DNA of 64,000 nt from Parcubacteria group bacterium. Its GTDB lineage: Bacteria > Patescibacteriota > Minisyncoccia > Phycocordibacterales > 21-14-all-47-15. Under the pieces are notes generated by a model that worked only from the letters and a program-made list of their open reading frames with translations, searched no databases and was not told where the DNA came from. The position numbers and the translations under genes were made by a program. Within the stretch, counting starts at the first letter, position 1, and every line of letters starts with the position of its first letter. The stretch spans positions 33,133-97,132 of the forward strand of contig JACOYO010000001.1 of assembly GCA_016181845.1 (NCBI GenBank), in the 5' to 3' direction. Below, piece by piece: positions 5,463 to 20,925 of the stretch.

Positions 5463-5495
5463 TTGCAGAATGAAACTAAAGATTGGCTAATAATA

Positions 5496-6044: not shown

Positions 6045-6850
6045 TAAACAAAGTCACTTTTGAGTAACCCGGTATCTGTTTCTTCCAATCTCCATCCGAC
6101 CGCTCCGCAAATTTCCTTCAAGTGTCCCGCGTTAGCGGTTTTTGGTATCACAACGATATCTTGGCTGATTAACCAATTGAGCGCTATTTGAATTGGCGTT
6201 TTTTGATATTTTTTACTCAAGGTATTGAGTATTTCTTTTTGCTCGAGCGCCAGCTTTCCTTTTGCAAGCGGGCGGTGCGCAATTACTTTTATATTATTCT
6301 CTTTGCAAAACGGAATAATTTCTTTCTCCGCCGAACGTTCGAGCAAGCTGTATTCGATTTGATTTGCCGCAAGAGTCGTCTTGCTCAAATACGATTGCGC
6401 CTCCTCCATAATCGGCACGGAAAAGTTGCTGACGCCGATATGGCGCACTTTTTTATTTGATACCAATTCCTCAAGCGCCCGCATAGTCTCCAGCAAAGGC
6501 GCCGCTTCGTTCGGCCAATGAATTAAATATAGATCAATATAATCGGTCTGTAACCGTTTCAGACTTTTCTCTGCCGCTGCCAAAACAGCATCATGGCGCA
6601 GATTGGTCTTCCAGACTTTTGTAATGAGAAAAATATCTTCTCTGTTGTGTCCTTTTATGGCTTGCCCTACTATCTCCTCGGTCAACCCTTCCCCATACAA
6701 TTCTGCCGTATCAATAAGCCTTATGCCGAGAGCAAGTCCTTGTTTCAAAATAGAAATTGATTGTTCGATATTGCTTTCGTCTCTTTCATATTTTCCGCCC
6801 ATGCCCCACGTACCCATGCCAAGCGCCGGAATGTTCATTTCTTTACCCAT
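6044..6850 (-). CDS. Aldo-keto reductase
   Basis: LGMGTWGMG ... IDTAELYG ... LITKVW motifs typical of aldo-keto reductases. Confidence 0.8.
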   Translation of the reverse strand: MGKEMNIPALGMGTWGMGGKYERDESNIEQSISILKQGLALGIRLIDTAELYGEGLTEEIVGQAIKGHNREDIFLITKVWKTNLRHDAVLAAAEKSLKRLQTDYIDLYLIHWPNEAAPLLETMRALEELVSNKKVRHIGVSNFSVPIMEEAQSYLSKTTLAANQIEYSLLERSAEKEIIPFCKENNIKVIAHRPLAKGKLALEQKEILNTLSKKYQKTPIQIALNWLISQDIVVIPKTANAGHLKEICGAVGWRLEETDTGLLKSDFV

Positions 6851-6855
6851 GTTTC

Positions 6856-8094
6856 TTATACAATGATTACTGCAGGCGTTGGTATGATAAATTTCCCCTT
6901 ATATCCGGCACCCCTTATTTTCGGAATCAATTCATCTGCAATGTTCCAGGAAAGGAGGAGCGCGTATTCCGGTTGGTCAACAAATAAACGGCTTTCCGGC
7001 ACGACGGGGATGCGTGTGCCGGGCGCAAAAAGACCGATTTTTAATGGGCTTTTTTCAACCAAATAATCAACGAGGCCAGGATTTGATGCGCAAAAATTGA
7101 GAAGCGTATTGCCTTTTGCCGGCGCGCCGATACCGACAACCCGCTTCCCCATACCCCGCTGTTCGGAAATGAATTTTTGAATGGAAATTTTATTTTGATT
7201 TGCCTTTTCGGCAAAATCGGCATATGTTTCTTTTTTATACAACCCCGCCGCTTCTTCTTTGTTGATAAGATGTTCAACAGTATCAAGCACTTTATGAGCC
7301 CCCTTTTTTGCTGCATAGATGCGGATTGAGCCGCCATGGGTAGAAATTTTTTCCGCATCAAACATTTCCAGCCCGTGAGCCGCAAACAACATCTTGAGCG
7401 GTTTCAATGAATAATACCGCAAGTGCTCATGATACACGGCGTCATATTGCAGTTTGGTAATCATATCGAGCAAATACCCCGATTCCGATACAAACACTCC
7501 ATCCTGAGTAAGCAGTTCCGCAACGCCGGCCAAAAAATCATTCAGTTTATTAACATGAGCAAAAACATTCGTTGCAGTTATTATTTTCGCATTGCCGTAT
7601 TTTTTCTCCACTTGCATAGCCACTGTCTTGGAAAAAAAATCAACGAGAGTCGGTATGTTATTTTTCAAAGCCAATTGAGCCGAGCTTGACGGGTCAATTC
7701 CTAAAATTTTCACACCGTACGGCACATAATTCGATAAAAGTGTCCCGTCGTTTGAACCGATATCAATTGCAAAATCGGTATTTTTTAATTGGAAACGCTC
7801 TATCAAGGTCTCAACGAGATTGTAAAAATTAACCTTGAGACTGTTGTTGGTCGCAGTATTGTATACATAATCCACAAACAATTTTTCCGGCGGAACAATA
7901 TGGTTTAGCTGAACCAAACCGCATGTCTCGCAAAAACAAAGTTCAAGCGGATATGTCGCTTCCGGTTTGCAAAGGTCTTCTGATTTCAAAAAAGCATCGC
8001 TTGGCGGCTGGTGCCCCAAATCAAGGAAATTAAAGAAGGTTGTGTTGTCGCAAATAAAACAATGCATGCCATTACTTATCAAATCGATAGACAA
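6856..8094 (-). CDS. SAM-dependent C-methyltransferase (TylCIII/NovU-like; N-terminal Zn-binding domain, C-terminal C-methyltransferase domain)
   Basis: N-terminal C-x2-C ... C-x2-C (CFICDN ... CFCETCG). Central DIGSNDG SAM-binding motif. ~410 aa architecture of NDP-hexose C-methyltransferases. Confidence 0.7.
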   Translation of the reverse strand: MSIDLISNGMHCFICDNTTFFNFLDLGHQPPSDAFLKSEDLCKPEATYPLELCFCETCGLVQLNHIVPPEKLFVDYVYNTATNNSLKVNFYNLVETLIERFQLKNTDFAIDIGSNDGTLLSNYVPYGVKILGIDPSSSAQLALKNNIPTLVDFFSKTVAMQVEKKYGNAKIITATNVFAHVNKLNDFLAGVAELLTQDGVFVSESGYLLDMITKLQYDAVYHEHLRYYSLKPLKMLFAAHGLEMFDAEKISTHGGSIRIYAAKKGAHKVLDTVEHLINKEEAAGLYKKETYADFAEKANQNKISIQKFISEQRGMGKRVVGIGAPAKGNTLLNFCASNPGLVDYLVEKSPLKIGLFAPGTRIPVVPESRLFVDQPEYALLLSWNIADELIPKIRGAGYKGKFIIPTPAVIIV

Positions 8095-9895
8095 ATAAAT
8101 TATTATCCTGAAAAACTATGTTCGGCCCATGAAGTTCATTCAATATCTTTTGGGGTAATGTCCCTTGAGACACGATGTAGTCAAGACGATAGGTACGGAG
8201 CATGTCTTCAAGATTGATAGCCGCCAATCGCCGATATATGTCGGCAAAATTGCCTATGCGTTCGTCCAATGACCGGCTTACGAAATCGGGAAAATCTGAA
8301 ACACCATATAAATCTTTCCAATCTGAAAAAATAAAATCCCTCGCCTCCACTATATGCTCTTTTACATATTCTTCAATGTGGTCATCGGTAATACCCCGCA
8401 TGCGAAGCTGAACTGCGTAATTATAATATGACCGCTCAATCGGCATGAGTGAAAATGACCATGGGGAAGCATAAACGTCGCAATGGGTAAACGCCGGTAT
8501 CAAACCAATTATTACATATGGTTCTTTCTCATTCTCGTTGGCCAAAACAACGCAATTTTTTTCTTGTTCATCAAGCCACTTGAGCGTCGGCCAAAATAGC
8601 TGGAGATTCGCGTCGTATTGATAAAATCGATTGAACGTACCTGCTTGAATATATACGCCATACACTAGAGGAACAGCCACCGCAAAAAAAACACCGATTG
8701 CCCATATAGCCCGCAACTGATGCCTTACTATGCGATACCAAAGCACCATTAACACGATCATGGCGAGCGGGATAGAATACTGCACAAAATGATAGGGCCA
8801 GACCGTTTGTCCGGTGATAATCTGCTGGCTATATGCCCAGAGCGATCCCAAAATAAAAGCAAGGGTAAACAAATGCCAATCCTCTATAAACCCTGTTGTT
8901 TTTTGTTCTACTAACTTTGTGTTTTTTCTATCTCGTATAAATTGCCATCCTACAAAAACCGCATACACAATCAAAACCAGAAAGAGCAATTTGTTCATAA
9001 GCGGGTAATGTGTATAAAAAATACCATTCCGTAAAAGAGCTTCTGCGTACCATGGACTTTTGCTTGCTTGCCAAACAAGGTACCAATACGGAAGGGTCAT
9101 CAAAAAAGCATACCCCGCAAGAACTCCCATGCTTTTGACAATCGTATATTCTTTTTTAAGAACATACATCAGGGCAAGCATAACAAGAATGGATACTGCT
9201 ATCCCCCAGCTGAAAAAATAACTCCCCACCATCAGTGCAAGAAAAATAGCCGCGCTTAAAAGCGCTCTTTTGTGCGGTCTTTCGTTTCTTATATTCGCTA
9301 TCATACGCCACAGAGAACCGAGAAAAGCCATGAGCAGAAGCGCTCCTAAAACAGGGTTAATGGGCCGAGCCCAAATCAAGAAACCGGCTGGGCTTGCGGA
9401 ACCGCTAAGAAAAGCAAGAAGACTTCTGTAATCAATCAGGTCATAACCGAGAGTAACGAGCAACGCGCCGGCAATCGCATTGATTTTTGCAAAAAAGGAA
9501 TCATCGTCTTCAAAAAGTTTGAGTAGAAGCGCATAAACCAAAAGAAACAAAATGAGCGGTAAAAAAAATTGGCTCGCAACAATAACGGCGGCTGGTTTTA
9601 CTTCAAATAACATCGCTGGGACCGCATACAGCATTTCTCCAACCGGCGGGGCAAGAGGAGTTTGGTTTTTGTATTCATAGAAAGCCTGTGACCCAACGAG
9701 CGGATGCCCATCGAGAATTTCTTGTATTCTTGCTATATAAAAATCATCATTCGCCGTATGCATCATCGGTATTCCGCGATACTCATCTCCCAAAGATAGT
9801 ATGAAAAAGATATTTGGTGCTACGTAAACAAACCCCACAAACAACGCCACCAAAATAGCTATATGATGTTCTTTGAAATAATCTTTGATGCTCAT
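8072..9895 (-). CDS. Polytopic membrane protein, possible GT-C-type glycosyl transferase/polymerase (function unknown)
   Basis: More than 12 predicted transmembrane helices followed by a ~200-aa soluble C-terminal domain. Embedded in a glycan operon. Overlaps the flanking genes. Confidence 0.35.
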   Translation of the reverse strand: MSIKDYFKEHHIAILVALFVGFVYVAPNIFFILSLGDEYRGIPMMHTANDDFYIARIQEILDGHPLVGSQAFYEYKNQTPLAPPVGEMLYAVPAMLFEVKPAAVIVASQFFLPLILFLLVYALLLKLFEDDDSFFAKINAIAGALLVTLGYDLIDYRSLLAFLSGSASPAGFLIWARPINPVLGALLLMAFLGSLWRMIANIRNERPHKRALLSAAIFLALMVGSYFFSWGIAVSILVMLALMYVLKKEYTIVKSMGVLAGYAFLMTLPYWYLVWQASKSPWYAEALLRNGIFYTHYPLMNKLLFLVLIVYAVFVGWQFIRDRKNTKLVEQKTTGFIEDWHLFTLAFILGSLWAYSQQIITGQTVWPYHFVQYSIPLAMIVLMVLWYRIVRHQLRAIWAIGVFFAVAVPLVYGVYIQAGTFNRFYQYDANLQLFWPTLKWLDEQEKNCVVLANENEKEPYVIIGLIPAFTHCDVYASPWSFSLMPIERSYYNYAVQLRMRGITDDHIEEYVKEHIVEARDFIFSDWKDLYGVSDFPDFVSRSLDERIGNFADIYRRLAAINLEDMLRTYRLDYIVSQGTLPQKILNELHGPNIVFQDNNLFVYRFDK

Positions 9896-10977
9896 GTAAT
9901 GTTATTCAAAATTGTCGCTATCTTTTTTATTTCTTGTTTTTTTAGATACGGGTACATCGGCAGTGAGAATATCTCTCGGGCGTAGCGTTCCGCCACAGGA
10001 AAGCTATTTTTTTCCTGTTTTGCGTAAAATGGGTGGCGATGGAGCGGGGTTCTATAATGGATGAGTGTTTGAATACCATGCTCTTTCAAGAGCTTCATTA
10101 TAGCATCCCTTTTTGGGGCGCGCACCACAAATAAATGATACACGCACTGGCTATCCCCCTGCGGGGTCGGTAATACAATCTTTGGATTCACAATTAAGTT
10201 CCGATACTGGAGAGCAAGCTGCTGTCTTGTTCGATTCCATGTATCTACATACTTTAATTTTACACTGAGTACAGCCGCTTGTATTTCATCAAGACGGCTA
10301 TTCATCCCCGGTATTGAACACACCTGCCTGTCTTTCTGCCCGTAAAAACGCTCCGCTAGAAGTTTTGTGTAATTTTTTTTGCTTTTTGTGATAATGGCGC
10401 CGCCGTCCCCATACGCGCCGATATTCTTGGTCGGATAAAAAGAAAAACATCCAAAATCTCCAAAACTTCCCACCTTTTTACCTTTCCACATTGCACCGGT
10501 CGCTTGGGCGCAATCCTCTATAAGCGTCAGGCGAAAACGCCGTGAAATTTTCTTTAGGGCGTCCATATCGCATGCTTGACCGTACAAATGTACCGCGATA
10601 ATCGCTTTGGTTTTTTTATTTATACGCCGAACAATCTGTTTACTATCAATTAAAAATGACTCATCGCAATCAACAAAAACGGGGCGCGCGCCGCTCATGG
10701 ATACCGCCATGGCAGTCGGCAATGCCGTGTTTACCGGCACAATCACCTCATCTCCTTGCCCGATACCCGCGCATAGAAGACTTAGGTAGAGCGCGTCGGT
10801 CCCGGAATTTACCCCCACGCAATATGGGGCATCGCAGTATTCGGCAAAACGTTTTTCAAAATTCTCTAATTCAGGCCCCAGGACAAACCACCCGCGCCGT
10901 AAGACACGATGAATTGCCTCATCAATTTCCTTTTTCAAGGATTTATATTCACGCGTAAAATCAACAAATGGGATCAT
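9892..10977 (-). CDS. DegT/DnrJ/EryC1/StrS-family PLP-dependent sugar aminotransferase
   Basis: FVLGPELENFEKRFAEYC ... GVNSGTDALYL, with the conserved Lys region; ~360 aa. Confidence 0.85.
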   Translation of the reverse strand: MIPFVDFTREYKSLKKEIDEAIHRVLRRGWFVLGPELENFEKRFAEYCDAPYCVGVNSGTDALYLSLLCAGIGQGDEVIVPVNTALPTAMAVSMSGARPVFVDCDESFLIDSKQIVRRINKKTKAIIAVHLYGQACDMDALKKISRRFRLTLIEDCAQATGAMWKGKKVGSFGDFGCFSFYPTKNIGAYGDGGAIITKSKKNYTKLLAERFYGQKDRQVCSIPGMNSRLDEIQAAVLSVKLKYVDTWNRTRQQLALQYRNLIVNPKIVLPTPQGDSQCVYHLFVVRAPKRDAIMKLLKEHGIQTLIHYRTPLHRHPFYAKQEKNSFPVAERYAREIFSLPMYPYLKKQEIKKIATILNNIT

Positions 10978-10978
10978 G

Positions 10979-11410
10979 TTACTTTTTTATATATTTTAAA
11001 AATTCATCATAATCACGTAGGTAATCGCTCTCGTCATGATGGTCGTTGGCAATCACCAGGATCACGCAATCCGGAGAAAATTTAGTCATGGTGTGCCACA
11101 CTTTTGGCCTCAGCAGCAGCCCTACCGAAGGATTATCCATGGGAATTTTCTGCTTATTTTCACCGTCATCCAACATCATCTCAAAAGAGCCATTCACGCA
11201 AAAAATAATTTGCTCTAATTTTTTATGCGCATGCTTCCCACGAATCGCTTTAGGGTTTTCTAATTGGTTAATAAAATAAAATCTTTTGATGGCAAAGGGT
11301 ATTTGTTTAAATTCTTCGCCAATAAATAACTGGCCATTCGGAGCATTGGAAAAGGCCCTGAGATAAACCATGTCTGCGTCAAAATAATTTTTATCACCAT
11401 TCGTATTCAT
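10979..11410 (-). CDS. dTDP-4-keto-6-deoxyhexose 3,4-ketoisomerase-like cupin (FdtA/QdtA/WxcM-like)
   Basis: RGKHAHKKLEQIIFCVNGSF motif of the FdtA family; ~143 aa. Immediately upstream of the aminotransferase. Confidence 0.7.
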   Translation of the reverse strand: MNTNGDKNYFDADMVYLRAFSNAPNGQLFIGEEFKQIPFAIKRFYFINQLENPKAIRGKHAHKKLEQIIFCVNGSFEMMLDDGENKQKIPMDNPSVGLLLRPKVWHTMTKFSPDCVILVIANDHHDESDYLRDYDEFLKYIKK

Positions 11411-11424: not shown

Positions 11425-12045
11425 CTATTTACCAAGAATAAAAACTTGGTATGGAGAGAGTCCGCTTTGCATATTAAAAGTCCTTTTTACGAGGAACCTC
11501 TCGGACAACAGCTTTTCGTATCCTTCTTTATCGCGTATGAATTCCCCATTATCAAGACGATGTAATAGACGTGTAATAACATTATTATCTGACCGATTGA
11601 CGTCCTCCATGATAAGTAATTCCCCATTTGGCGCAAGCACCCGTGACATTTCTTTTAAAACACGGCCGCTTGTCTCGTCGTCCAAATGATGCAGGACGCC
11701 AACAATAACAATTTTTTGGAAACTCCCGTCTTTAAACGGCAATGTTGTCGCGTCGCCCGCAAGAAAAGTTCCTTTGTAATTTTTCTTCGCGTAATCAATA
11801 TATTTTTTTTCAATATCAACGCCAGTATACATTTCCGGATTAAAAAAGACGGAAAATTCTCCAGTGCCACATCCGATATCAAGCACGCGCTCATCCGGCG
11901 CGCATACAAAATATTTTTTAAGCACTGATCGCTCACCCTTAAAATTATTCTCTAAAATCCGCCTCAAAAAGATAAAAATGCGCGGATTTTGCGATAGCGC
12001 GTGTATTGCTTGTTTAACCGTATCCATAGTTTTTACCGTATACAT
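11425..12045 (-). CDS. Class I SAM-dependent methyltransferase
   Basis: VLDIGCGTGEF motif I; ~200 aa. Confidence 0.7.
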   Translation of the reverse strand: MYTVKTMDTVKQAIHALSQNPRIFIFLRRILENNFKGERSVLKKYFVCAPDERVLDIGCGTGEFSVFFNPEMYTGVDIEKKYIDYAKKNYKGTFLAGDATTLPFKDGSFQKIVIVGVLHHLDDETSGRVLKEMSRVLAPNGELLIMEDVNRSDNNVITRLLHRLDNGEFIRDKEGYEKLLSERFLVKRTFNMQSGLSPYQVFILGK

Positions 12046-12112: not shown

Positions 12113-12865
12113 TCAAGAAATGCCGCGGCATTTCTTATTTTTATTCCCTACAAGCCTCTTCATCTTTAAAAAGAGTTTCAAATCACCAATAAACTTTTCT
12201 TTCAAAAGACCGATGGCGGTATAGTTTGATGTGCCATATTCGCGTTTGTAGTGGTTCACTGGAATTTCCACAAATCTTGCTCCGACCAATTCTAATTTTT
12301 TCACCAACTCTGCAAGAATGGAGGAATCTTTCGCCTCCAGAGAAACCCTATTTAAAACACTCCTCCGTATGAGACGAAAATCACAGTCAACATCACGAAT
12401 GGGAATTTGAAAGAGACGATGGACAAGAAAAGCATACCCATTCCCCAGAAAAACTCTTAAAAAATTATCCCCTCTCTTTTTTTTGTAGCCATTCACCACA
12501 TCAACTCCCGTTTGTGTCTGTTTCTCAGCCAAGAGCACCAGGTTTTCTTCCAGATGATACTGGGCATCCCCATCAGTATAAAAAATCCAGTCCTTTGTGC
12601 ACGCGGCAAATCCATATTTGATGACCGCGTATCCTTCAGTGTTATCTTTTTTGTCAACAATTTTGAGTTCCGGATATTTCTTTTTCATTTCCAAAATTTT
12701 TTGAAACGTCCAGTCTTTAGAATTGCCGCCGTGAAGCGCGATTACCTCAAGATTGTCTGTTAATGTTTCTCCGACCGCATACGCATACGTAAGTTGTCGT
12801 TCTACCGTCCCCTCATCATTATAGAACGGAAAAAAGATTGACAATGATGTTAATTTTTTTGTCAT
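12113..12865 (-). CDS. Glycosyltransferase family 2 (DPM1/GtrB-like polyprenyl-phosphate sugar synthase type)
   Basis: LSIFFPFYNDEGT N-terminus, DGD motif (FYTDGDAQ). Start taken at MTKK; the ORF track extends to 12910. Confidence 0.75.
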   Translation of the reverse strand: MTKKLTSLSIFFPFYNDEGTVERQLTYAYAVGETLTDNLEVIALHGGNSKDWTFQKILEMKKKYPELKIVDKKDNTEGYAVIKYGFAACTKDWIFYTDGDAQYHLEENLVLLAEKQTQTGVDVVNGYKKKRGDNFLRVFLGNGYAFLVHRLFQIPIRDVDCDFRLIRRSVLNRVSLEAKDSSILAELVKKLELVGARFVEIPVNHYKREYGTSNYTAIGLLKEKFIGDLKLFLKMKRLVGNKNKKCRGIS

Positions 12866-12878: not shown

Positions 12879-14327
12879 CTATGATTTCCCGCCAAACCAT
12901 ACGATTGCAATCCATAACTTTGCGAGGCGTGCCACGATAACCATAATTCTCGGAATATTTAACGCTTGTGATTTCCCGTACATTCTAAAATAATGAGATA
13001 CGCCAACTTCCGCAAATTTGAATCCTTTGTTTTGGGCTTTCTTCAATAATTCAACTGAAATAACTCCCGACTCACTTTCCAAATTTAGATTATCCAAGAC
13101 AGCGCGTCTCATCAATCTAAAATCACAATCTGGGTCCTTGACGGATAGCCAAAAAATCAACTTCATTAAATGCCGATAGATAATGTCAATAATAATTCTA
13201 TGGAATGGTTCCACATTTCCTATCTTGTACCCACTAACAATATCAATACGACTATCTAATTGTTCTAATAATTTTGGCAATTCTCGTATATCATACGATG
13301 CGTCTGCTTCAGTATAACAAACAATATCTTTTTGGGTTGCCGCGAAACCGCTTCGGAGTGTAGCGCCATACCCTTGCTTTTTATGGTGAAAAATGAGTTT
13401 TAATTCAGGAATTGAATTTTTTAATTCCAAAAGCAATTCCTGGCTTCCGTCGGTAGAATAATCATCAACGACAATAATCTCAAAATCATTAGTAAGAGAA
13501 CGTGCGACTTTTTTTGCTTCTACTATCATTGTGGCAATTGTCCCCTTATCATTAAAGCATGGAAATACAATTGATAATGATGGCACACGCGCGCTAATCT
13601 GTTTTTTATATTGCATAAATTTCCCCGCTTCAAGCAGACTGTCCGTGGTCCCAATATCAAACCAGTTTTTTTCAAGTATTATTGCTTGCAACGCGCCATC
13701 CTCAATGTATTTATTATTGATATGAGTGATTTCATATTCTCCCCGTCCTGATTTCTGTTGTCCTAGCATTTTTTCAAAAACCGTATTGTCATAAAGATAA
13801 ACACCAGTAACCGCCTTGTTTGATTTCGGATTTTTTGGCTTTTCTTCAATCTCAATAATATTGTTGCTTCCATCAATAGTCGCGACACCAAACCGTTCCG
13901 GGTCATTTACTTCTTTCAAAAAAACAAGCGCCCCTTTCTTAAAATTTTCAACATATTCGCTTATATCATCTTCAAAAATATTATCACCTAAATATAAAAC
14001 ACAATTATCGTTGCCGACATACTCTTTGGCAATATGCAGTCCGTCGGCAATACCAGATGGCTTATCCTGAATCCCGTATACTATCTGAATACGTTTGCCC
14101 GTTTTGGGGGAAATAAAATTTTGACCGGAACCCACTAATTGAACAAAATGATGCTGATACTCCGGCGGAGTAACAATCATGATGTGGTCAATTCCAGCCG
14201 ATACCAGTTTTTCAATCGCGTAAAAAATAACCGGCTTATCATATATCGGCAAAAGATGCTTATTTGTAATGTGAGTAAAGGGCGCCAATCGTGTACCGCT
14301 CCCTCCGGCTAAAATAACTCCTTTCAT
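12879..14327 (-). CDS. Fusion protein: N-terminal RmlA-like sugar-1-phosphate nucleotidyltransferase + C-terminal GT2 (DPM1-like) glycosyltransferase
   Basis: N-terminus MKGVILAGGSGTRLAPFT..K..LP (G-x-G-T-R nucleotidyltransferase signature, ~240 aa). Then SIVFPCFNDKGT ... VVDDYSTDGS ... YTEADAS (GT2 DxD). Confidence 0.75.
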   Translation of the reverse strand: MKGVILAGGSGTRLAPFTHITNKHLLPIYDKPVIFYAIEKLVSAGIDHIMIVTPPEYQHHFVQLVGSGQNFISPKTGKRIQIVYGIQDKPSGIADGLHIAKEYVGNDNCVLYLGDNIFEDDISEYVENFKKGALVFLKEVNDPERFGVATIDGSNNIIEIEEKPKNPKSNKAVTGVYLYDNTVFEKMLGQQKSGRGEYEITHINNKYIEDGALQAIILEKNWFDIGTTDSLLEAGKFMQYKKQISARVPSLSIVFPCFNDKGTIATMIVEAKKVARSLTNDFEIIVVDDYSTDGSQELLLELKNSIPELKLIFHHKKQGYGATLRSGFAATQKDIVCYTEADASYDIRELPKLLEQLDSRIDIVSGYKIGNVEPFHRIIIDIIYRHLMKLIFWLSVKDPDCDFRLMRRAVLDNLNLESESGVISVELLKKAQNKGFKFAEVGVSHYFRMYGKSQALNIPRIMVIVARLAKLWIAIVWFGGKS

Positions 14328-15346
14328 GATAATTTAAGATGCGAGTTTATCTCTTTTTTTCGTTTTAAGATATTTTCAACCCAATCATTATTTTCTTTAT
14401 ACCATTGCAATACGTCTGGCAATTTATTTTCCAGAGAATATTTTGGCTTCCAACCAAGCCGGCGTAATCTTGATGAGTCAACAGCATATTTCCGATCATG
14501 CGCCGGTCTGTCTTTTACAAATGTGATCAGAGTTTGCGGTTTCCTTAACGCCGAGAGTATTTTTTGAGCAATAATTTTATTGGAATATTCTTTTCCTTCT
14601 GAAATTCCAAAGGTGTCCCCGCTTTTTGATTTTTGCAAAAGAAGAAGCAATGCATCGGTATGGTCATCAACATACAGCCAATCGCGCATATTTCGACCGT
14701 CTCCATACAACGGTAGTGATTCATCGTGCAAAGCGCGCACTGTAAAAAATGGTATCAATTTTTCCGGAAATTGTCGCGGTCCAAAATTATTGACTGAACG
14801 AGAGATAACTACCGGTACTCCATAGGTATGTACATACGCACGAATAAGCAATTCGGCAGCCGCTTTTGACGCGGCGTATGGCGAATTCGGTTTCAGGGGA
14901 GAATCTTCATTGAACTTTTTTTTAGAAGCAAGCGGCAAATCCCCCCACACTTCATCGGTTGAGACATGTACCATTTTTTTCACACGCGGAGATTTTTGAA
15001 GCGCTTTCATAAGCGAGTGCACGCCGATGATGTTTGATTGAATAAAAGCGTCGGCTCCTCCGTGAATAGACCGGTCCACATGCGTTTCTGCGGCAAAATT
15101 AACCACAAAATCAACCGAGCTCATGAGTTTTTCCACGAGCGCCGTATCGCAAATATCGCCTTTCACAAAAGAATACCTCGCTTGCGGCACGCCGAGAAGA
15201 TTATCTTGATTGCCGGCATAGGTGAGCGCGTCAAGGTTAATCACAGACGCATTTTTAACAACGCTTAAAAAGCGGTGGATAAAATTAGAGCCCATGAAAC
15301 CGGAGCCGCCGCAGACAAGAATCTTTTTGTGTTTGAAATAATTCAT
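14324..15346 (-). CDS. rfbB: dTDP-glucose 4,6-dehydratase
   Basis: ILVCGGSGFMGSNF Rossmann motif, YAASKAAAELL (Y-x3-K). ~340 aa, typical RfbB/RmlB. Confidence 0.8.
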   Translation of the reverse strand: MNYFKHKKILVCGGSGFMGSNFIHRFLSVVKNASVINLDALTYAGNQDNLLGVPQARYSFVKGDICDTALVEKLMSSVDFVVNFAAETHVDRSIHGGADAFIQSNIIGVHSLMKALQKSPRVKKMVHVSTDEVWGDLPLASKKKFNEDSPLKPNSPYAASKAAAELLIRAYVHTYGVPVVISRSVNNFGPRQFPEKLIPFFTVRALHDESLPLYGDGRNMRDWLYVDDHTDALLLLLQKSKSGDTFGISEGKEYSNKIIAQKILSALRKPQTLITFVKDRPAHDRKYAVDSSRLRRLGWKPKYSLENKLPDVLQWYKENNDWVENILKRKKEINSHLKLS

Positions 15347-15384: not shown

Positions 15385-17235
15385 TTATATCGCATCCCGC
15401 CCATGGTGTGTAAAAACAAAAATCTTATACCCAAAAAAATTACCGAAAAATGCGATTGGGATTTCTATGGCAAGAGCTATATTTACCCATATCTTAGGGT
15501 CTATGCCATTAGGCGCGCCGATAACATTAACGATAATATGAAGCAAAAATATATTCAAGAGAGATGTGGCGCTCGTTATGGTAAAAAATTTAATGTACTC
15601 TGCTCTTCCGTTGTCGGTATTGTGCGCACGAAATGTCCAGAATTTATTCCAAAAAAAACTGTGCGTGATGGTAATTATTGAAGAAATGATCGTAAAAAAA
15701 ATCACCTGCCAGCCGCGCGCTATGTCGGTAAACCAAATAAAAAGATTGGTAATACCGGCAAAAAGAAACGTATTTAAAAGCCCTATCAATCCATATTTCC
15801 CAATTTGGAAAATTGAGGAACGCCACCGCATGCCCAATAGATATGCGCCGTATAAACCGGCAACGGTCATAAACGGAAGCAAAAAAAGCCAGAGTCCAAT
15901 TACAAAAAAGGAGAGCCCATGATTGTAGCGCGCTAATATGTCAAACACTTTTATATTTTGAAACACAGGAATAGAAAGCAGAGCGATGGCTTCCCCAATA
16001 ATAAGCGTCCGCCAAAAATCGGTTTTGGTGAACACTAAAATTTCTCCAAGTTCTTTATACGTGTTGCCTGACGTCTGGCGTAAAACAGTCCCATTATTAT
16101 GTAGGATGTTTTTCATAAAATGAATAATATTCGCGGCCCTGTTGCTCCAAGAATATTCCACCACGGTCTCTCGCGCTTTTTTTGAGAATGTTTTTAGAGC
16201 CGCGCAATCAGACAATCCGAAAACAGTCTTTTTTGCCAAATCGTTCGGGTTATCCGCATCAAAAAATATGGCCGTTGTTTCATGCAGTATCTCGCGTACA
16301 GCAGGCGTATCAGAAGCAATAATCGGCGTGCCAGAAGCCATATACTCAAAAAGTTTCATTGGTGAAGTGTACTCCCTTCCTATTTTCTCTTTTCCGCTTG
16401 TTGGCAAGACTAGCACATCCGCTGCTCTAAGCCACAACGGAATTTCCTGATGCTGGCGATGCCCGACAAAAATAATGTTTTTATATTTTATATTTTGTAT
16501 TTTGTATTTTGAAACTTCTTCTGCAGTGCCGCCGACGAGATATACGAGCATATCTGCATCCAATTTTTTTGCCGCCTCAATCAAAGTGTTAACACCCTTC
16601 CACTTGTAAAGATGTCCAGCGTAAAGAATGATTTTTTTATCAAGCGGAAGATTAAGCGTTTTTCTCGCGGCTTCTTTTGATATAACAATATCAAAACGCC
16701 TCAAATCAACGGCATCCGGCGCACAAAGTATTTTATCTTCAGAGACTCCAAAGCGCATGAGGTCTTTTTTTATGCCGTTGCTGATGACGACCAATCCCAT
16801 ACTTTTGCGCAAAACAAAATTGTGAAGAAACGATGACTTTTGAGGAAGTGTATGAAGCTCATAAAATATAGGCTTATGGAATAAAGCGAACAGAAACGCA
16901 ACCAAAAAATCACGGGTATAAAATACTGCGTCTTTTTCAAAAACCGCTCGCGCAATTGCCGACACGGAAAACGTAACGCTTTCAATCCAAAACCAAAGGG
17001 GTTTAAAAAAAGGAATCGGAATCAAATCCAAAACTGGCAAACGTTTGATATTGAATACTGCATCAACGCCATAATACAGAAAAGGGTCCTGTTTTATCGG
17101 GTTAAGCCTCCACGGCACAACAAGCGTAATTTCAATATCTTTCCCCTGTTTAAAGGCGCGTGCGGTATTCATAATCTGAACCCCGTGTGCTTTCTCCGTC
17201 GGCAAGCGAATATTTGCAATATATAAGAGTTTCAT
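15385..17235 (-). CDS. Fusion protein: N-terminal GT4 glycosyltransferase + C-terminal GtrA-like 4-TM membrane domain
   Basis: GT4 body (residues ~1-380) followed by hydrophobic helices ending YIKFFTITSATSLLNIFLLHIIVNVIG ... FFGNFFGYKIFVF (GtrA-like). Contains a heptanucleotide tract at 16484-16511. Confidence 0.65.
   Translation of the reverse strand: MKLLYIANIRLPTEKAHGVQIMNTARAFKQGKDIEITLVVPWRLNPIKQDPFLYYGVDAVFNIKRLPVLDLIPIPFFKPLWFWIESVTFSVSAIARAVFEKDAVFYTRDFLVAFLFALFHKPIFYELHTLPQKSSFLHNFVLRKSMGLVVISNGIKKDLMRFGVSEDKILCAPDAVDLRRFDIVISKEAARKTLNLPLDKKIILYAGHLYKWKGVNTLIEAAKKLDADMLVYLVGGTAEEVSKYKIQNIKYKNIIFVGHRQHQEIPLWLRAADVLVLPTSGKEKIGREYTSPMKLFEYMASGTPIIASDTPAVREILHETTAIFFDADNPNDLAKKTVFGLSDCAALKTFSKKARETVVEYSWSNRAANIIHFMKNILHNNGTVLRQTSGNTYKELGEILVFTKTDFWRTLIIGEAIALLSIPVFQNIKVFDILARYNHGLSFFVIGLWLFLLPFMTVAGLYGAYLLGMRWRSSIFQIGKYGLIGLLNTFLFAGITNLFIWFTDIARGWQVIFFTIISSIITITHSFFWNKFWTFRAHNTDNGRAEYIKFFTITSATSLLNIFLLHIIVNVIGAPNGIDPKIWVNIALAIEIPIAFFGNFFGYKIFVFTHHGRDAI
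16484..16511. repeat. Heptanucleotide simple sequence repeat (TATTTTG)x3-4 inside the GT4-GtrA CDS
   Basis: Reads tatttta tattttg tattttg tattttg. Coding strand (CAAAATA)n encodes KYKIQNIKYKN in frame. Confidence 0.8.
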
Positions 17236-17901
17236 TTATTTTGATGCGCTAAAAAACAATCCGAGTGCGAATTTTTCACGCGGCAGTTTCGGCTTTATTA
17301 AAAAAACTATCCAATCAGCAAAAAAGGAACCGGGCAGAATCAAAAACCTGAGCACTCTTGGCAGAACAAACTCAACCTGCGAATATGCTGCCGAAAAAGG
17401 TCCACGGCCAAGCACCGTCACTTTTACATCGCGAAGTAAGGCGGTTTCATACGCCGCCGCAAGAGTTTCACTTGTATACCGCCAAAAATCATGCGGGTCC
17501 GGATGATACCCGACCAAAAAAGGAACAGCGCCAATCATGCGTCCACCGGGTTTTAAAATCCTATGTATCTCTTTGAGCAAAAAAGAGTACCGATAGACAT
17601 GTTCAAAAATATTGAACACAAGAACCGTGTCGATGCTATTATCTTGATACGGCAGCGCGTCTTTCTCGAAATCAATTGAAACATTTTTTTCAGACGGCTG
17701 ACTTCCAAAACCGACATCAAGCGCAGCAATTTCCATGGTCTTTCCTTTTTGAAAAAAACGATAGTAGCTCGCTTGGTTAACGCCACTCCCCAAATCAACC
17801 ACCTTTCCTGAAAGCGTATAATGCGCGCATTCATTGTTCATGAATATGCGGTATAGATCTTTCCCTCGCCATATTTCTTTTATATAATTCCATCCGCTCA
17901 T
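17236..17901 (-). CDS. Class I SAM-dependent methyltransferase
   Basis: VVDLGSGVNQ ... LKPGGRMIGAVPF motifs. Abuts the neighbouring genes. Confidence 0.6.
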   Translation of the reverse strand: MSGWNYIKEIWRGKDLYRIFMNNECAHYTLSGKVVDLGSGVNQASYYRFFQKGKTMEIAALDVGFGSQPSEKNVSIDFEKDALPYQDNSIDTVLVFNIFEHVYRYSFLLKEIHRILKPGGRMIGAVPFLVGYHPDPHDFWRYTSETLAAAYETALLRDVKVTVLGRGPFSAAYSQVEFVLPRVLRFLILPGSFFADWIVFLIKPKLPREKFALGLFFSASK

Positions 17902-19733
17902 ATTTCTATTTTATATGCCCTTGCCCATATTTGGAAAGTCATGACCGCCCAGAGAATGTTCAGATTGTACACTTTTGAATCTCGGTGTTCTTCCAAAATT
18001 TTTTTGATTTCTTCAAACAAAAAAAGTTGCGCTGTTGGCTTATAATACCCTTCCGACAATATATGCTCTGCCATTCTATAAATATCAGGATGACGGAGCC
18101 ACTTAGCCGCCGGAGAAAACCAGCCACGCTTTGGCTCTTTAAAAAGAAAGCTCGGCAAATCACTTTCAAACGCTTTTTTTAGTATAATCTTCGTATCAAA
18201 GAGGCTGATTTTTTCTTTGAGCGGAATTGTCGCGGCAAACTCCACCACCTCTCTATCAAGCAACGGCACTCGCGCTTCAAGCCCAGCTGACATGCTCATC
18301 TTATCGCTAAGCATGAGGGAAAAATCAACGAGCCAGCTCCTTCGGTCGGTGTCCATAAAAAGCTCTTCGAATAATCTATCCTCATTTCCTTTAAAATATT
18401 TTTTATTAAAAAAAGCTTCTGTCATTCCCTGCGATAAAAACGACTTTTGAATCACCGAGCTCAAAAGCGATTCTTTTTGAAACATAAAAAGTGAGAAGCG
18501 GTTAACCCCGCTCGGAGTATTTAATTTTTTGATATTGCTACTCACCCGAGCTAGCGGATCTCGTAGCCATTTCGGCACCGTTTGCCAATAACGCGCAGCC
18601 AAACTCAATCGATACCGCTCATAGCCGCCGAAAAGCTCATCGCCGCCGTCTCCGCCAAGCACAACATCGGCTTTTTGTTTCGCAAAGCCCGCCAATTTCA
18701 TCATCGCCAAAGCGGTCGGATTTGAGATCGGCTCATCCATGTGCCAGACGGCCCGCTCGAGCGTATCCAGCACATCAGGCACGCCAAGGAGCACTTCGTG
18801 ATGGTTTGTTCCGAAATGCTTTGCCGTACGACGCGCCAAATGAAAATCAGCATTAAACTTTTCCTGCTGTTCTTTTTCACCTAATCGGAACCCGACAGAA
18901 AAGGTATCGATATTTTTTCTTTGACCGGCAAGCGCCGAGAGCACAATACTTGAGTCTATGCCGCCCGATAAATATACGCCAAGCGGCTTGTCTGATACCA
19001 ATTGGCGCGTAACTGAAGAAATAATTTTTTGGCGAAGAGTGTGCGCCAATTCTCCCCTTTCTCCGGAGAAATACTTTCCGTGCGGCGCCCGCCAAAAGGT
19101 TTTGGTTTGCAACATTCCGTTTCTTAACACCAAACTGGTAGCCGGCGGCACTTTGTATATTCCTTCAAACATTGTGAAAGGCTCCGGCACGTACAATGCC
19201 CGAAAATAATGATTGAATGCCTCTCGGTTAAGTTTTCTCGGAACCCCGTGCTCAAGAATCGCTTTTATTTCGGAAGAAAATATAAATTTCTTGCCATCCC
19301 AAAAATAATAGAGCGGTTTTATGCCCACGTGGTCGCGCGCAAGAAAAAGCTCTTTCTTGCGCCTGTCCCAAATCGCAAACGCGAAAATTCCGTTAAATTT
19401 TTTAACGCAGTCATGCCCCCATTTTTCATAGGCGGCCAAAATGACTTCCGTATCACTCGCTGTCTTAAACTGATACGCGGTAGCGAGCTCCTGCTTGAGT
19501 TCTTTGAAATTATATATTTCTCCGTTAAAGACGATCACGAGGTTCCCAGTATTATTTTTCATCGGCTGTCCGGCTTCTTCACGCACGTCAATAATGCTCA
19601 ACCGATTGTGCCCAAAAGAAATGCCTCCATCTAAAAATATGCGGGTTCCGTCAGGCCCGCGATGCTTGGTGATTTGATTCATATTTTGAATCAAACGTTC
19701 GTCTTCAAAATTAAATCCATTGATTGAGCACAT
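17898..19733 (-). CDS. asnB: Asparagine synthase (glutamine-hydrolysing)-like amidotransferase
   Basis: N-terminal MCSINGF (Cys2 nucleophile), SGGIDSS PP-loop; ~610 aa. Common in glycan loci (WbpS-like). Confidence 0.8.
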   Translation of the reverse strand: MCSINGFNFEDERLIQNMNQITKHRGPDGTRIFLDGGISFGHNRLSIIDVREEAGQPMKNNTGNLVIVFNGEIYNFKELKQELATAYQFKTASDTEVILAAYEKWGHDCVKKFNGIFAFAIWDRRKKELFLARDHVGIKPLYYFWDGKKFIFSSEIKAILEHGVPRKLNREAFNHYFRALYVPEPFTMFEGIYKVPPATSLVLRNGMLQTKTFWRAPHGKYFSGERGELAHTLRQKIISSVTRQLVSDKPLGVYLSGGIDSSIVLSALAGQRKNIDTFSVGFRLGEKEQQEKFNADFHLARRTAKHFGTNHHEVLLGVPDVLDTLERAVWHMDEPISNPTALAMMKLAGFAKQKADVVLGGDGGDELFGGYERYRLSLAARYWQTVPKWLRDPLARVSSNIKKLNTPSGVNRFSLFMFQKESLLSSVIQKSFLSQGMTEAFFNKKYFKGNEDRLFEELFMDTDRRSWLVDFSLMLSDKMSMSAGLEARVPLLDREVVEFAATIPLKEKISLFDTKIILKKAFESDLPSFLFKEPKRGWFSPAAKWLRHPDIYRMAEHILSEGYYKPTAQLFLFEEIKKILEEHRDSKVYNLNILWAVMTFQIWARAYKIEI

Positions 19734-20925
19734 TGAGAATAATGTTATCTATTTTTTCTTGCGAAAATAGTGTTGACGAAAGCAACCGCGAATTTTTAGA
19801 TAATTCCCGTCGAAGCTCCGTGTCTCGGAGCCGTACTAGCGCATCTGCAAACTCTTTGGGCGTTCGCGCAAAAAGCACGTGAATATTTTCTTTAAACTGA
19901 TACCCGGCCATTCCTCTTGGAGAAATAACCGCGGGAATACCGCGCGCAAGCGGCTCAAAAATTTTTTGCTGCATGCCGGCGCCCATAAGCGAGGGGATAA
20001 GAGCAATATCCATTGTGTCCAAGAAATCATCTAATTCTTTACCGAGTTTGCGCCCTGCATATATGACGTATTCATTAAAATATCCGTTAAATTCTTGCGG
20101 TACTTTGGTTCCTAAAATATGAAACTTGAAAGATCTGGGATACGTGCGCATGACGCGCGGAGCAATATCTCTTAAAATAGAGCGGAGCGCTTCTTTGTTG
20201 TGGTGCACATTGTATGTTGAACCCATAAAAAAAACATTGAGTGGTTCTTTTTGTGAAAACATATGCCGTTCGCGCAAACACATAGGAAGCCCGCGAAGCG
20301 GCAGTATTTCCACTTTTTTTGCTCCGTATTTTTTATAGACTTTTTCCTCATCCGGCGTAATGGCAAAAAGAAAATCACTCTTTTTTATCGTAATCAGTTC
20401 GCTTATCAATTTCGGCAAAAATTTTAAATAATTGCCAAACGTGCGGCCGTCTTCTTCCAAAAAGTGCGTCGGCTCGACATTGATCGAGCGGGTAATAATC
20501 GGAATATGTCTTTTTTGAAAAATAAAATACAGCGGCCACAGATACGTGTAATCAAACCATACAACATCAGGTTGCCATTCATCGGTAATTTTTTTTACCG
20601 TTTCAATAGTTTCTTTGTGAGCATATTCATACGCGGCTCCATCCCAATAGAGCGGATTAATGAATCTTTTAAGATAGAAGAAAGCACGCTGGGCTCCGTT
20701 CTTCGCCTTTTGAGACTCATACGGAAGAAGCGTAATCGGAATATCATATTGACGCGAAAAATCTTCGATGTTCTTCGTACTCTGAAAATCAAATACTTTG
20801 CCAACAATGTGCATGTCAAAGCCGAGCCGCTTTAATTGCTTGATGCCTTCGAAACGGTCTTTCTCACAGGCGCCAAGTGCTGGCAATGGAAATCGCGGAG
20901 TAATCACTAAAATCCGTTTGCTCAT
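19711..20925 (-). CDS. Glycosyltransferase family 1 (GT4); first gene of the ~18.6-kb minus-strand glycan operon
   Basis: C-terminal GT-B domain with KIFEPLARGIPAV; ~400 aa. Long hairpin-rich leader upstream. Confidence 0.7.
   Translation of the reverse strand: MSKRILVITPRFPLPALGACEKDRFEGIKQLKRLGFDMHIVGKVFDFQSTKNIEDFSRQYDIPITLLPYESQKAKNGAQRAFFYLKRFINPLYWDGAAYEYAHKETIETVKKITDEWQPDVVWFDYTYLWPLYFIFQKRHIPIITRSINVEPTHFLEEDGRTFGNYLKFLPKLISELITIKKSDFLFAITPDEEKVYKKYGAKKVEILPLRGLPMCLRERHMFSQKEPLNVFFMGSTYNVHHNKEALRSILRDIAPRVMRTYPRSFKFHILGTKVPQEFNGYFNEYVIYAGRKLGKELDDFLDTMDIALIPSLMGAGMQQKIFEPLARGIPAVISPRGMAGYQFKENIHVLFARTPKEFADALVRLRDTELRRELSKNSRLLSSTLFSQEKIDNIILNVLNQWI

Follow-up and report, generated by a model that had tools for sequence, protein, structure and literature searches.

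Judged from its sequence, the open reading frame (ORF) at positions 12879–14327, which belongs to a Parcubacteria (Patescibacteria/CPR) genome, is a true bifunctional gene in which an RmlA-type thymidylyltransferase is joined to a GT2 glycosyltransferase resembling the polyprenyl-phosphate enzymes ArnC, GtrB, and DPMS. The fusion protein probably (at roughly 60%) supplies both the first cytoplasmic step (formation of dTDP-glucose) and the last (transfer of an amino-sugar onto polyprenyl phosphate) of a three-component lipid-carrier glycosylation system. The layout of the fusion within the window, i.e., the whole 64-kb stretch of DNA that was analyzed, is as follows.

12879–14327, minus strand: RmlA-GT2 fusion, a single ATG ORF of 482 aa (Pfam NTP_transferase and Glycos_transf_2)
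13608–14327, minus strand: RmlA-type glucose-1-phosphate thymidylyltransferase domain, N-terminal, residues 1–240
13578–13607, minus strand: linker KKQISARVPS (~10 aa), residues ~241–250, containing an A6 run
12960–13577, minus strand: GT-A (GT2) catalytic domain of the polyprenyl-phosphate glycosyltransferase type, residues 251–456, with a JM1-like helix at 375–392
12897–12956, minus strand: C-terminal hydrophobic helix, JM2-like and probably at the membrane interface, residues 458–477 (Kyte-Doolittle profile and AF2 model)

Architecture and Reality of the Fusion

A domain search places NTP_transferase at residues 2–238 (E = 9.5e-55) and Glycos_transf_2 at residues 252–413 (E = 3.1e-22), in agreement with a preliminary description of one 482-aa ORF joining an RmlA-type and a GT2 domain; the two motifs singled out there are likewise present, GGSGTRLAPFT at residues 8–18 and SIVFPCFNDKGT at residues 252–263. 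That description had also raised the concern that a sequencing or assembly frameshift might have joined two separate genes. Such an error is suggested by the A6 run in the linker and by a Parcubacteria relative (L009) in which rmlA and the GT2 gene are unfused, standing in the same order but in different frames with a 4-nt GTGA overlap. However, one continuous frame with the same junction runs through 11 full-length homologues of 60–86% identity, recovered from independent NCBI, ENA, JGI, and Logan assemblies of varied samples, assemblers, and databases, and any shift of frame at the junction would run into the many stop codons of the other two frames. A protein identical over its 482 aa has been deposited from a Parcubacteria MAG, and the linker length is kept in 11 of the 12 aligned family members. 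Moreover, a separate GT2 gene is excluded in the window sequence, because no in-frame ATG occurs there between the junction and M268, and a start at M268 would remove the first β-strand and its motif; M238, a candidate independent start of the GT2, is variable (isoleucine in P0006, P0007, and P0012). The frameshift is therefore extremely improbable as an explanation of the fusion, and for the window sequence the closed frames and the 11 homologues rule it out.

Gene Neighborhood

The fusion is surrounded by genes for sugar-nucleotide modification and putative lipid-carrier transfer, listed here from the upstream side in the direction of transcription, with a further methyltransferase at the end.

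15385–17235, minus strand: GT4 glycosyltransferase with a GtrA-type domain, a putative polyprenyl-phosphate-sugar flippase (Pfam Glycos_transf_1 and GtrA_DPMS_TM, E = 9e-15)
14324–15346, minus strand: rfbB, dTDP-glucose 4,6-dehydratase (TIGR01181, 397 bits, above the cut-off of 365), upstream of the fusion and translationally coupled to it
12113–12865, minus strand: free-standing GT2, a paralogue of the fused GT2 (38% identity), in which HGG replaces the nucleotide-binding DD
11425–12045, minus strand: small class-I SAM methyltransferase (Pfam Methyltransf_25/11), conserved beside or fused to the GT2
10979–11410, minus strand: FdtA-type dTDP-6-deoxy-3,4-keto-hexulose isomerase (Pfam FdtA, E = 4.8e-42; PDB 2pa7, E = 5e-38)
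9892–10977, minus strand: DegT/FdtB-type PLP sugar aminotransferase (Pfam DegT_DnrJ_EryC1, E = 1.7e-112)
8072–9895, minus strand: polytopic membrane protein of 607 aa with a GT-C fold, the presumed final transferase, from a family that is confined to Patescibacteria and has no Pfam model
6856–8094: TylC3-type C-methyltransferase

The stop codon of rfbB and the start codon of the fusion overlap by 4 nt (ATGA), as had been noted before, and at homologous loci the upstream position is again taken by a GT4-GtrA fusion or by a free GtrA gene. A C-methyltransferase had been counted among the enzymes of the branch; a TylC3-type enzyme is indeed encoded at 6856–8094, but the methyltransferase gene adjoining the fusion encodes a class-I SAM enzyme of generic type. 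The dTDP-D-ravidosamine pathway ends in an N,N-dimethyltransferase, and a ravidosamine-like N,N-dimethylamino sugar was considered as the product of the cassette; a firm claim to this effect was dropped, because the PDB matches of the small methyltransferase are generic class-I only and do not distinguish N-methylation from O-methylation or another target. The free GT2 sits on a long branch in a neighbor-joining tree that carries no bootstrap support and is read only together with the pairwise identities. Elsewhere in the window, two more pairs of a short GT2 with a PMT_2 gene are present, and a scan of the window against Rfam gave no matches.

The Thymidylyltransferase Half

The RmlA half is 45–48% identical to the RmlA of Bacillus anthracis, the structure of which was solved with dTDP-glucose. 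The nucleotide-binding signature G-G-x-G-T-R-L, which reads GGSGTRL at residues 8–14, is invariant across the family; in an alignment with E. coli RmlA (PDB 1h5r), Q87, D115, E162-K163, W222, and D224, all of them invariant in the family alignment, match the reference residues, i.e., the thymine-selective glutamine (Q83 in E. coli and S. enterica), the Mg/phosphate ligands D111 and D226, K163/E162, and W224. The half scores below the equivalog cut-offs of TIGR01207 (237.7 versus 360.65 bits) and TIGR01208 (214.8 versus 320.25 bits), and the equivalog match spans model positions 1–239 of 286. In comparison with the ~290-aa type of RmlA, the C-terminal ~45 residues, a helical subdomain that forms the tetramer/allosteric region, are absent, and the domain ends at ~240. 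The same end is seen in the short RmlA/RfbA of B. anthracis (245 aa, PDB 3hl3/4ecm), and the stand-alone RmlA of L009 lacks this subdomain as well; unlike the B. anthracis enzyme and the classical RmlA of E. coli and P. aeruginosa, the fusion continues in frame into the GT2. No second rmlA was found in the 64-kb window by tblastn with the RmlA half (next best match, E = 1.3), which agrees with the preliminary description; the dTDP-4-keto-6-deoxyhexose branch formed by RmlB, FdtA, and DegT thus plausibly starts, much as proposed there, at the RmlA half.

The Glycosyltransferase Half

The GT2 half matches ArnC and DPMS best in sequence and, among GT-A structures, DPMS, ArnC, and GtrB, with alignments that extend through the juxtamembrane (JM) helix region and, in the case of DPMS, cover 226 of ~237 residues; the earlier assignment to the polyprenyl-phosphate-sugar-synthase type is borne out by these matches. 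The ArnC residues R128 and R137, which contact polyprenyl phosphate, and D48, R205, and S210, which contact the nucleotide, correspond to K368, R377, D289, R448, and S453, all invariant or nearly so in the family alignment. In the AF2 model of the fusion protein, which is of moderate confidence (pLDDT 74), helices at 375–392 and 458–477 match the two amphipathic JM helices, and the sole hydrophobic segment of the protein by Kyte-Doolittle analysis lies at ~458–480. ArnC, GtrB, and DPMS run on into 2–4 transmembrane (TM) helices; the fusion has no TM domain, its chain ending at residue 482, 5 residues past the JM2-like helix.

The D-A-D-L-Q motif of ArnC, GtrB, and DPMS, in which the first Asp is the proposed catalytic base and the second Asp and the Gln bind the metal, reads E340-A-D342-A-S344 in the window protein. 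The DxD motif reported before is thus a variant and not the canonical form. A DGD(A/G)Q sequence is found in 10 of the 12 family members, and the second Asp is invariant. With the proposed base replaced by E340 and the metal-binding Gln by S344, the window GT2 may, to judge from these substitutions, be impaired or altered.

Conservation and Origin of the Fusion

The complete cassette, consisting of GtrA, RmlB, RmlA-GT2, the small methyltransferase, FdtA, DegT, and a membrane protein of ~600 aa with a GT-C fold, recurs in four other assemblies. The family of the GT-C-fold protein has at least 230 members, and D152 and D155 of this protein are invariant. Within the same FdtA-DegT-GT-C cassette, orthologous GT2s are fused elsewhere to RmlB, to the small methyltransferase (in P0009, P0022, P0023, and P0026), or to a B12/radical-SAM (rSAM) domain, or are free and adjoin rmlA; the forms seen comprise RmlA-GT2, RmlB-GT2, GT2-methyltransferase, RmlA-GT2-methyltransferase, and GT2-rSAM. 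This variety indicates that the fusion partner is whichever gene adjoins the GT2, not the enzyme of a consecutive step. As compared among these sequences, the RmlA-GT2 fusion is evolutionarily labile, and it is dispensable for function, since close relatives keep the genes separate. The linker corresponds to the C-terminal tail of RmlA and the N-terminus of the GT2 in the unfused L009, and the fusion would have originated by the in-frame merger of two adjacent, translationally coupled genes.

Beyond the Parcubacteria, the GT2 subfamily is linked to DegT in 61 of the 79 loci listed; RmlA-like genes accompany it in only 4. None of the best 150 representatives in an exhaustive search of representatives at 50% identity matched both halves; the fused family presumably stands under a shorter representative at that threshold, and its rarity is a qualitative statement that implies no count. 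Likewise, no fused form is among the 80 loci in the matches listed from a scan of GTDB genomes, which does not prove absence; neither the source MAG nor that of Niyogibacteria was in this set. The literature searched on the fusion, on dTDP-sugar pathways in CPR bacteria, and on FdtA with polyprenyl carriers contains no description of the RmlA-GT2 architecture.

Proposed Pathway

In the three-component reading, the N-terminal half, an RmlA of the 245-aa type, would convert dTTP and glucose-1-phosphate to dTDP-glucose, which RmlB, FdtA, DegT, and probably also the small methyltransferase would process to a dTDP-3-amino-3,6-dideoxyhexose derivative. The C-terminal half, seen as a glycosyltransferase of the ArnC/GtrB/DPMS kind cut down to its GT-A domain and two membrane-interface helices, would then, at the cytoplasmic face of the membrane, most likely load polyprenyl phosphate with the finished amino-sugar, taken from its dTDP donor, and not with glucose. 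The constancy of DegT as a neighbor of the GT2 subfamily across other phyla points to such an aminated end-product as the donor. The lipid-linked sugar would be flipped by the GtrA-type protein and handed to an extracytoplasmic acceptor by the adjacent GT-C-fold membrane protein. A GT-A enzyme, a putative GtrA-type flippase, and a GT-C-fold transferase are genetically linked at the locus, and this gene set fits the published definition of three-component, or multi-component transmembrane, glycosylation systems (PMC8035078). What the fusion itself may provide is membrane tethering and co-expression in fixed stoichiometry, not obligatory channeling between consecutive steps. Observed are the domain architecture and its conservation, the folds, the conserved residues, and the linkage of the genes; the acceptor, the flipping, the sequence of the steps, and the substrates are predictions.

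Several points count against this reading: no polyprenyl-phosphate glycosyltransferase is known to use a dTDP-sugar donor, and the literature searched yielded none; the fusion lacks the TM domain that helps to define ArnC, GtrB, and DPMS; and the window copy carries EADAS, with E340 and S344. In addition, the cassettes of the window genome and of a Niyogibacteria genome contain a second GT2, and the assignment of a donor to each copy is thereby ambiguous.

Alternative Interpretations

The missing TM domain and the altered DADLQ motif, together with the great breadth of the GT2 family, would also suit an ordinary soluble or peripheral GT2 that does not act on polyprenyl phosphate and takes as its acceptor, for example, a small molecule, a lipid-linked glycan, or a polymer resembling teichoic acid. 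This is unlikely, since the top matches are three solved polyprenyl-phosphate enzymes aligned through the JM-helix region, the basic residues for the phosphate of undecaprenyl phosphate are invariant, and the gene is tightly linked to GtrA and a GT-C enzyme, both of which need a polyprenyl-phosphate-sugar donor; TM-less enzymes of this type with a membrane partner exist as well (GacI/GacJ). The preliminary description had accepted the polyprenyl-phosphate acceptor and proposed direct channeling of a newly made NDP-hexose to the lipid carrier, a claim at odds with its own view that the dTDP-4-keto-6-deoxyhexose branch starts at the fusion protein. In this version, the fused GT2 would put glucose from the dTDP-glucose of RmlA straight onto the carrier, with RmlB, FdtA, and DegT served in parallel. 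Both active sites do reside on one polypeptide, fusions of a nucleotidyltransferase with the transferase of the consecutive step exist (IPCT/DIPPS is among the matches), and one of the two GT2 paralogues in the cassette, here and at L002, could be a glucosyl carrier synthase. Nevertheless, channeling is quite unlikely and the claim was not upheld: orthologous GT2s are fused to RmlB, the methyltransferase, or a radical-SAM domain, or stand unfused; loci with a single GT2 still have FdtA, DegT, and the GT-C protein; the subfamily goes with DegT (61/79), not RmlA, across phyla; and the commonest fusion partner or neighbor is the small methyltransferase, a late-step enzyme.

The two GT2 copies of the window could also form a hetero-oligomer of degenerate paralogues, in which the fused GT2, weakened by E340 and S344, is mainly a scaffold or partner of the free GT2 beside it; the roles might also be exchanged, as the free copy has lost DD. 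The complementary divergence of the tandem paralogues is confined to the window protein and its nearest relative, P0002; the Niyogibacteria locus has both copies canonical, the free GT2 is on its long branch, and ArnC and GtrB are tetramers with strand exchange between protomers. However, Glu for the first Asp is a conservative change, the metal-binding second Asp is invariant, and in most of the family the fused GT2 is single and canonical; a hypothetical arrangement of this kind, deduced from sequence divergence, is very unlikely.

Comparison with Known Systems

With the ArnC/GtrB/DPMS enzymes of the GtrA/GtrB/GtrV, ArnC/ArnEF/ArnT, and CsbB/GtcA/YfhO systems, the fused GT2 shares the GT-A fold, the ligands for nucleotide and lipid phosphate, the metal-binding second Asp, and the two JM-like helices, and as in these systems its gene neighbors include a GtrA-type protein and a GT-C-fold transferase. 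It differs in its N-terminal fusion to a sugar-1-phosphate nucleotidyltransferase, in EADAS instead of DADLQ, in a presumed dTDP-amino-dideoxyhexose donor instead of a UDP- or GDP-sugar, and in a GT-C partner from a family without a Pfam model. The dTDP-Fuc3NAc pathway of Aneurinibacillus thermoaerophilus (RmlA/RmlB/FdtA/FdtB/FdtC) begins with the same four types of enzyme, whereas the core cassette has a small SAM methyltransferase in place of an FdtC-type acetyltransferase, and its product is apparently delivered not by a cytoplasmic Leloir glycosyltransferase but by way of a polyprenyl-phosphate carrier and a GT-C enzyme.

ArnA joins two steps of the Ara4N pathway that do not directly follow each other; like the fusion, it is one polypeptide serving a single envelope-sugar pathway, and the steps are probably non-consecutive here as well. 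In IPCT/DIPPS (PDB 4mnd), a cytidylyltransferase is fused to the membrane transferase that uses its product, whereas the product of the RmlA domain is probably not the direct substrate of the GT2, and the pairing of domains (RmlA with a polyprenyl-phosphate glycosyltransferase) is different. Human DPM1 is a TM-less polyprenyl-phosphate glycosyltransferase that needs a membrane partner, DPM3. GacI of S. pyogenes is likewise TM-less and works with the membrane partner GacJ (PMC8035078). Both resemble the fusion in having a GT-A domain without a TM anchor of its own in a lipid-carrier glycosylation system; a partner like GacJ or DPM3 was not identified at the locus, where the fused RmlA, the GT4-GtrA protein, and the free GT2 are candidates.

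Significance

The RmlA-GT2 fusion is an incremental variation without a new mechanism, and the cassette is made of known enzyme types. A bolder interpretation, which is possible but should be held only tentatively, is that the cassette is the first lipid-carrier system with a dTDP-activated, possibly N-methylated 3-amino-3,6-dideoxyhexose, decorating the CPR/Parcubacteria envelope via a previously unrecognized GT-C family; the fusion would then be a membrane-tethered metabolon of the first and last steps, with an oligomeric RmlA replacing the missing TM and β-hairpin oligomerization elements. The "Rosetta-stone" fusions tie a widespread, uncharacterized subfamily of TM-less ArnC-like GT2s to amino-sugar nucleotide pathways, and the cassette reveals a GT-C-fold enzyme family that Pfam does not model. 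Parcubacteria are uncultivated bacteria with reduced genomes, the surface chemistry of which is hardly known; for their surface, the cassette predicts an unusual amino-dideoxy sugar that would be brought there by a lipid carrier.

Coding frame and domain junction

The 482-aa RmlA-GT2 protein, encoded by a single ORF with an ATG start on the minus strand, is found among the following genes.

Genes of the cassette and of the adjoining stretch (window positions, strand)
15385-17235 (-), GT4-GtrA fusion, 616 aa: GT4 (GT-B) glycosyltransferase with a C-terminal GtrA-type flippase-like domain (GtrA_DPMS_TM, E 9e-15)
14324-15346 (-), rfbB (TIGR01181, 397 bits, above the cut-off)
12879-14327 (-), RmlA-GT2 fusion (ORF and Pfam)
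12113-12865 (-), free GT2 paralogue, 38% identical to the fused GT2
11425-12045 (-), small class-I methyltransferase (Pfam)
10979-11410 (-), FdtA (2pa7, E 5e-38)
9892-10977 (-), DegT aminotransferase (Pfam)
8072-9895 (-), 607-aa polytopic membrane protein of GT-C fold, no Pfam match
6856-8094 (-), TylC3-type C-methyltransferase, NDP-hexose type (Methyltransf_13/14)
6044-6850 (-), aldo-keto reductase
5496-6044 (-), NUDIX hydrolase
4395-5462 (-), Gmd, GDP-mannose 4,6-dehydratase (450 bits)

Residues 2-238 of the fusion match NTP_transferase (E 9.5e-55) and residues 252-413 match Glycos_transf_2 (E 3.1e-22) in Pfam, in agreement with the preliminary description of an RmlA-type enzyme and a GT2 in one frame. 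The 4-nt overlap with rfbB that it reported is likewise present as ATGA, in which the rfbB stop TGA overlaps the ATG of the fusion, and its claim that a separate rmlA is absent holds within the 64-kb window, where tblastn with the RmlA half as the query returned no second copy (next match, E = 1.3).

An identical protein has been deposited for a Parcubacteria-group MAG (122.6-kb contig), and 11 further family proteins of 60-86% identity, 475-490 aa in length plus one of 676 aa, are present in NCBI, ENA, JGI and Logan assemblies, each with both domains and an alignable linker that shows a 2-aa indel in one only. The junction DNA contains stops throughout the two other frames and, upstream of M268, no in-frame ATG from which the GT2 could be translated on its own; a start at M268 would deprive the GT2 of its first strand and PCFND motif; the G+C content is equal in both halves. 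A frameshift or assembly artefact at the junction, the circumstance under which the preliminary description would have fallen, is thus ruled out by the 11 homologues, the stops and the lack of an ATG, and the fusion is upheld.

Conserved residues and membrane features

In alignment with E. coli RmlA, the RmlA half possesses the GGSGTRL loop, Q87 (the thymine-selective Q83 of E. coli RmlA), D115 and D224 (metal and phosphate), E162-K163 and W222, all of which are invariant in the family of 12 members, that is, the window protein and its 11 full-length homologues. The GT2 half was mapped through pairwise alignment to the polyprenyl-phosphate glycosyltransferase ArnC, the residue roles of which are taken from a cryo-EM study (bioRxiv 10.1101/2025.01.29.634835).

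ArnC residues, their roles and counterparts in the fused GT2
D48 (nucleotide): D289, nearly invariant in the family
D102 (metal): D342, invariant
R205 (nucleotide): R448, invariant
S210 (nucleotide): S453, invariant
R137 (Und-P phosphate): R377, invariant
R128 (Und-P phosphate): K368, invariant
D100 (proposed catalytic base): E340, Asp in 10/12 members
Q104 (metal): S344, Gln in 10/12 members

The DxD previously ascribed to this half survives in its second aspartate, D342, whereas the site as a whole reads E340-A-D342-A-S344 against D-A-D-L-Q in ArnC, GtrB and DPMS. E340 and S344 are confined to the window protein and its nearest relative, DGD(A/G)Q being retained in 10 of the 12 members, and catalysis may be changed or impaired by the EADAS variant. 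The neighbouring free GT2 presents the reverse pattern, with DGDAQ kept and 'LHGGNSKD' where the nucleotide-binding 'VDDG-S-D' is expected, so that the DD kept in the fused GT2 is lost; in the Niyogibacteria locus (L002, 12198-12914), both GT2 copies are canonical. The window pair could represent complementary degeneration or a hetero-oligomer.

In a structure model, predicted helices 375-392 and 458-477 occupy the sites of the two juxtamembrane (JM) helices of ArnC, and the sole hydrophobic segment covers residues 458-480. Since the chain ends at 482, the GT2 module consists of GT-A plus JM helices; the transmembrane (TM) domain present in ArnC, GtrB and DPMS is absent.

A probable three-component glycosylation cassette

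The cassette recurs in the Niyogibacteria MAG, two ENA assemblies and one ENA/JGI pair as GtrA or GT4-GtrA, RmlB, RmlA-GT2, a methyltransferase of ~200 aa, FdtA, DegT and a GT-C protein of ~600 aa. GT4-GtrA also lies 5' of RmlA-GT2 in loci L003/L004 and L005; GtrA is unfused in L001/L002, L007 and L009. A three-component system has been defined by a GT-A enzyme making C55-P-sugar together with a flippase of the GtrA type and a transferase of the GT-C type, and TM-less GT-A enzymes dependent on a membrane partner, such as GacI/GacJ, exist (PMC8035078). The GtrA, GT-A and GT-C proteins of the window match this definition, and the layout of the cassette is that of such a three-component ('multi-component transmembrane') glycosylation system. 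The window holds two more pairs, in each of which a short TM-less DPMS-like GT2 adjoins a PMT_2 GT-C, and it appears that several modules for lipid-carrier glycosylation operate in this genome from a single ~30-kb glycan island.

Further GT2 and PMT_2 GT-C pairs
22284-22976 (-), GT2, with 23142-24506 (-), GT-C
27767-28483 (-), GT2, with 26286-27770 (+), GT-C

Directly 3' of the cassette, the genes at 4395-8094 (-), from Gmd to the TylC3-type C-methyltransferase, form a second sugar-nucleotide toolkit, which suggests a deoxysugar that has a branched chain or carries additional modifications; an aldo-keto reductase and C-methyltransferases are found again in L001/L002 and L005. Three genes on the 5' side of GT4-GtrA (17236-20925, (-)), for a methyltransferase, a 611-aa AsnB-type glutamine amidotransferase and a GT4-like protein, are kept in L003/L004, and amidation of the sugar or of the acceptor is possible. 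Beyond the island are a lamin-tail-domain/PKD surface protein (33374-34834, (-)) and a TrwB/VirD4-like coupling ATPase (35802-37823, (-)).

Lability and origin of the fusion

Orthologous GT2 domains, 45-60% identical to the fused GT2, are joined elsewhere to an RmlB-type dehydratase (P0020, P0024, P0025; RmlB-GT2 of 574 aa in P0024), the small methyltransferase (MT; P0022, P0023, P0026; GT2-MT of 425 aa in P0022) or a B12/radical-SAM domain (P0021, 734 aa), and P0009 (676 aa) is a triple RmlA-GT2-MT fusion. The order GT2-FdtA-(MT)-DegT-GT-C is kept in RmlB-GT2 and GT2-MT loci. Gene fusions are common in the cassette across Parcubacteria; an RmlD-RmlA fusion (P0042, 540 aa) and a 1210-aa protein with GT2 at its C-terminal end (P0287) were also observed. 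In L009 (Parcubacteria GW2011_GWC1_45_13), the genes are separate, ordered as in the window, with 4-nt overlaps.

Separate genes of L009
4293-5294, rfbB
5291-6028, rmlA, 245 aa, 70% identical to the window counterpart; C-terminal end '...EAGNFMKNKFLES*'
6025-6744, GT2, GTG start, 56% identical to the window counterpart; N-terminus 'VKSLSIFFPCYNDKGT'

This split, overlapping arrangement in the same order indicates that two adjacent, translationally coupled genes merged in frame. The fused GT2 of P0011 is 78% identical to the unfused GT2 of L009 and only 57% to that of the window, and the interleaving of fusion states among orthologues, for which the NJ tree of GT2s is indicative only, argues that fusion and fission happened repeatedly. 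With close relatives unfused, the fusion is not required. An A6 homopolymer (window ~13602-13607, fusion codons 241-242) lies within the inter-domain linker, where a 1-nt slip could convert the fused state into the split one or back.

Donor sugar and proposed pathway

Searching the GTDB species genomes with an alignment of the GT2s returned at least 594 relatives of 44-56% identity; those listed belong mostly to Acidobacteriota (Vicinamibacterales), Chloroflexota and Omnitrophota and are almost always free-standing (about 235-290 aa). Among these listed matches, DegT is linked to GT2 in 61/79 loci (in 58 of these, it shares the strand and lies no more than 3.5 kb away), an SDR in 59/79 and an RmlA-like gene in only 4/79. 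The loci (L010-L088) share the motifs YTDGDAQY and RDxDCDFR in a TM-less, ArnC-like GT2, nearly always have this GT2 next to a DegT aminotransferase and an SDR whose identity to RmlB is only ~26%, and look like an uncharacterised Arn-like amino-sugar lipid-carrier module. In L063 (~5950-8900), simple ORF extension gives a 989-aa frame across the GT2, SDR and DegT matches, probably an artefact of long open frames in high-GC DNA, which could otherwise be another fusion.

The aminotransferase is thus the constant partner of the GT2 subfamily, and the fusion partner is simply the neighbouring gene; together, these observations argue for the aminated end-product as the donor and against dTDP-glucose that has just been made. 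The earlier proposal that fresh NDP-hexose is channelled onto the lipid carrier is not borne out, given the DegT linkage and the varied fusion partners. We know of no characterised polyprenyl-phosphate glycosyltransferase with a dTDP-sugar donor.

The RmlA half, as its family and residues indicate, would form dTDP-glucose, which RmlB, FdtA and DegT, by virtue of their families, would convert to dTDP-3-amino-3,6-dideoxyhexose, and the small methyltransferase may modify this amino-sugar. The GT2 half, at the membrane via its JM helices and possibly partners, would transfer the amino-sugar to polyprenyl phosphate; GtrA would flip the lipid-linked sugar, and the GT-C protein, in keeping with its fold, would pass it to an acceptor outside the membrane. 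The fusion would keep expression of the two halves at 1:1 and place the enzyme that opens the pathway at the membrane. One Parcubacteria genome paper reports the absence of the isoprenoid pathway (PMC5220378); a polyprenyl-phosphate carrier must nevertheless exist for peptidoglycan synthesis.

No description of the fusion or cassette was found in the searchable literature, and public annotation of the protein reads only 'glycosyltransferase' or 'sugar phosphate nucleotidyltransferase'. Proteins of ~600 aa that combine NTP_transferase with a GT2 (Glyco_tranf_2_3-type) form a second, unrelated class, so the Pfam-level architecture is not unique. The families of all parts and the system logic are already known; new are their combination, a TM-less subfamily of ArnC-like enzymes linked to amino-sugar pathways and a GT-C family specific to CPR. 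The RmlA-GT2 fusion is real, conserved but labile.
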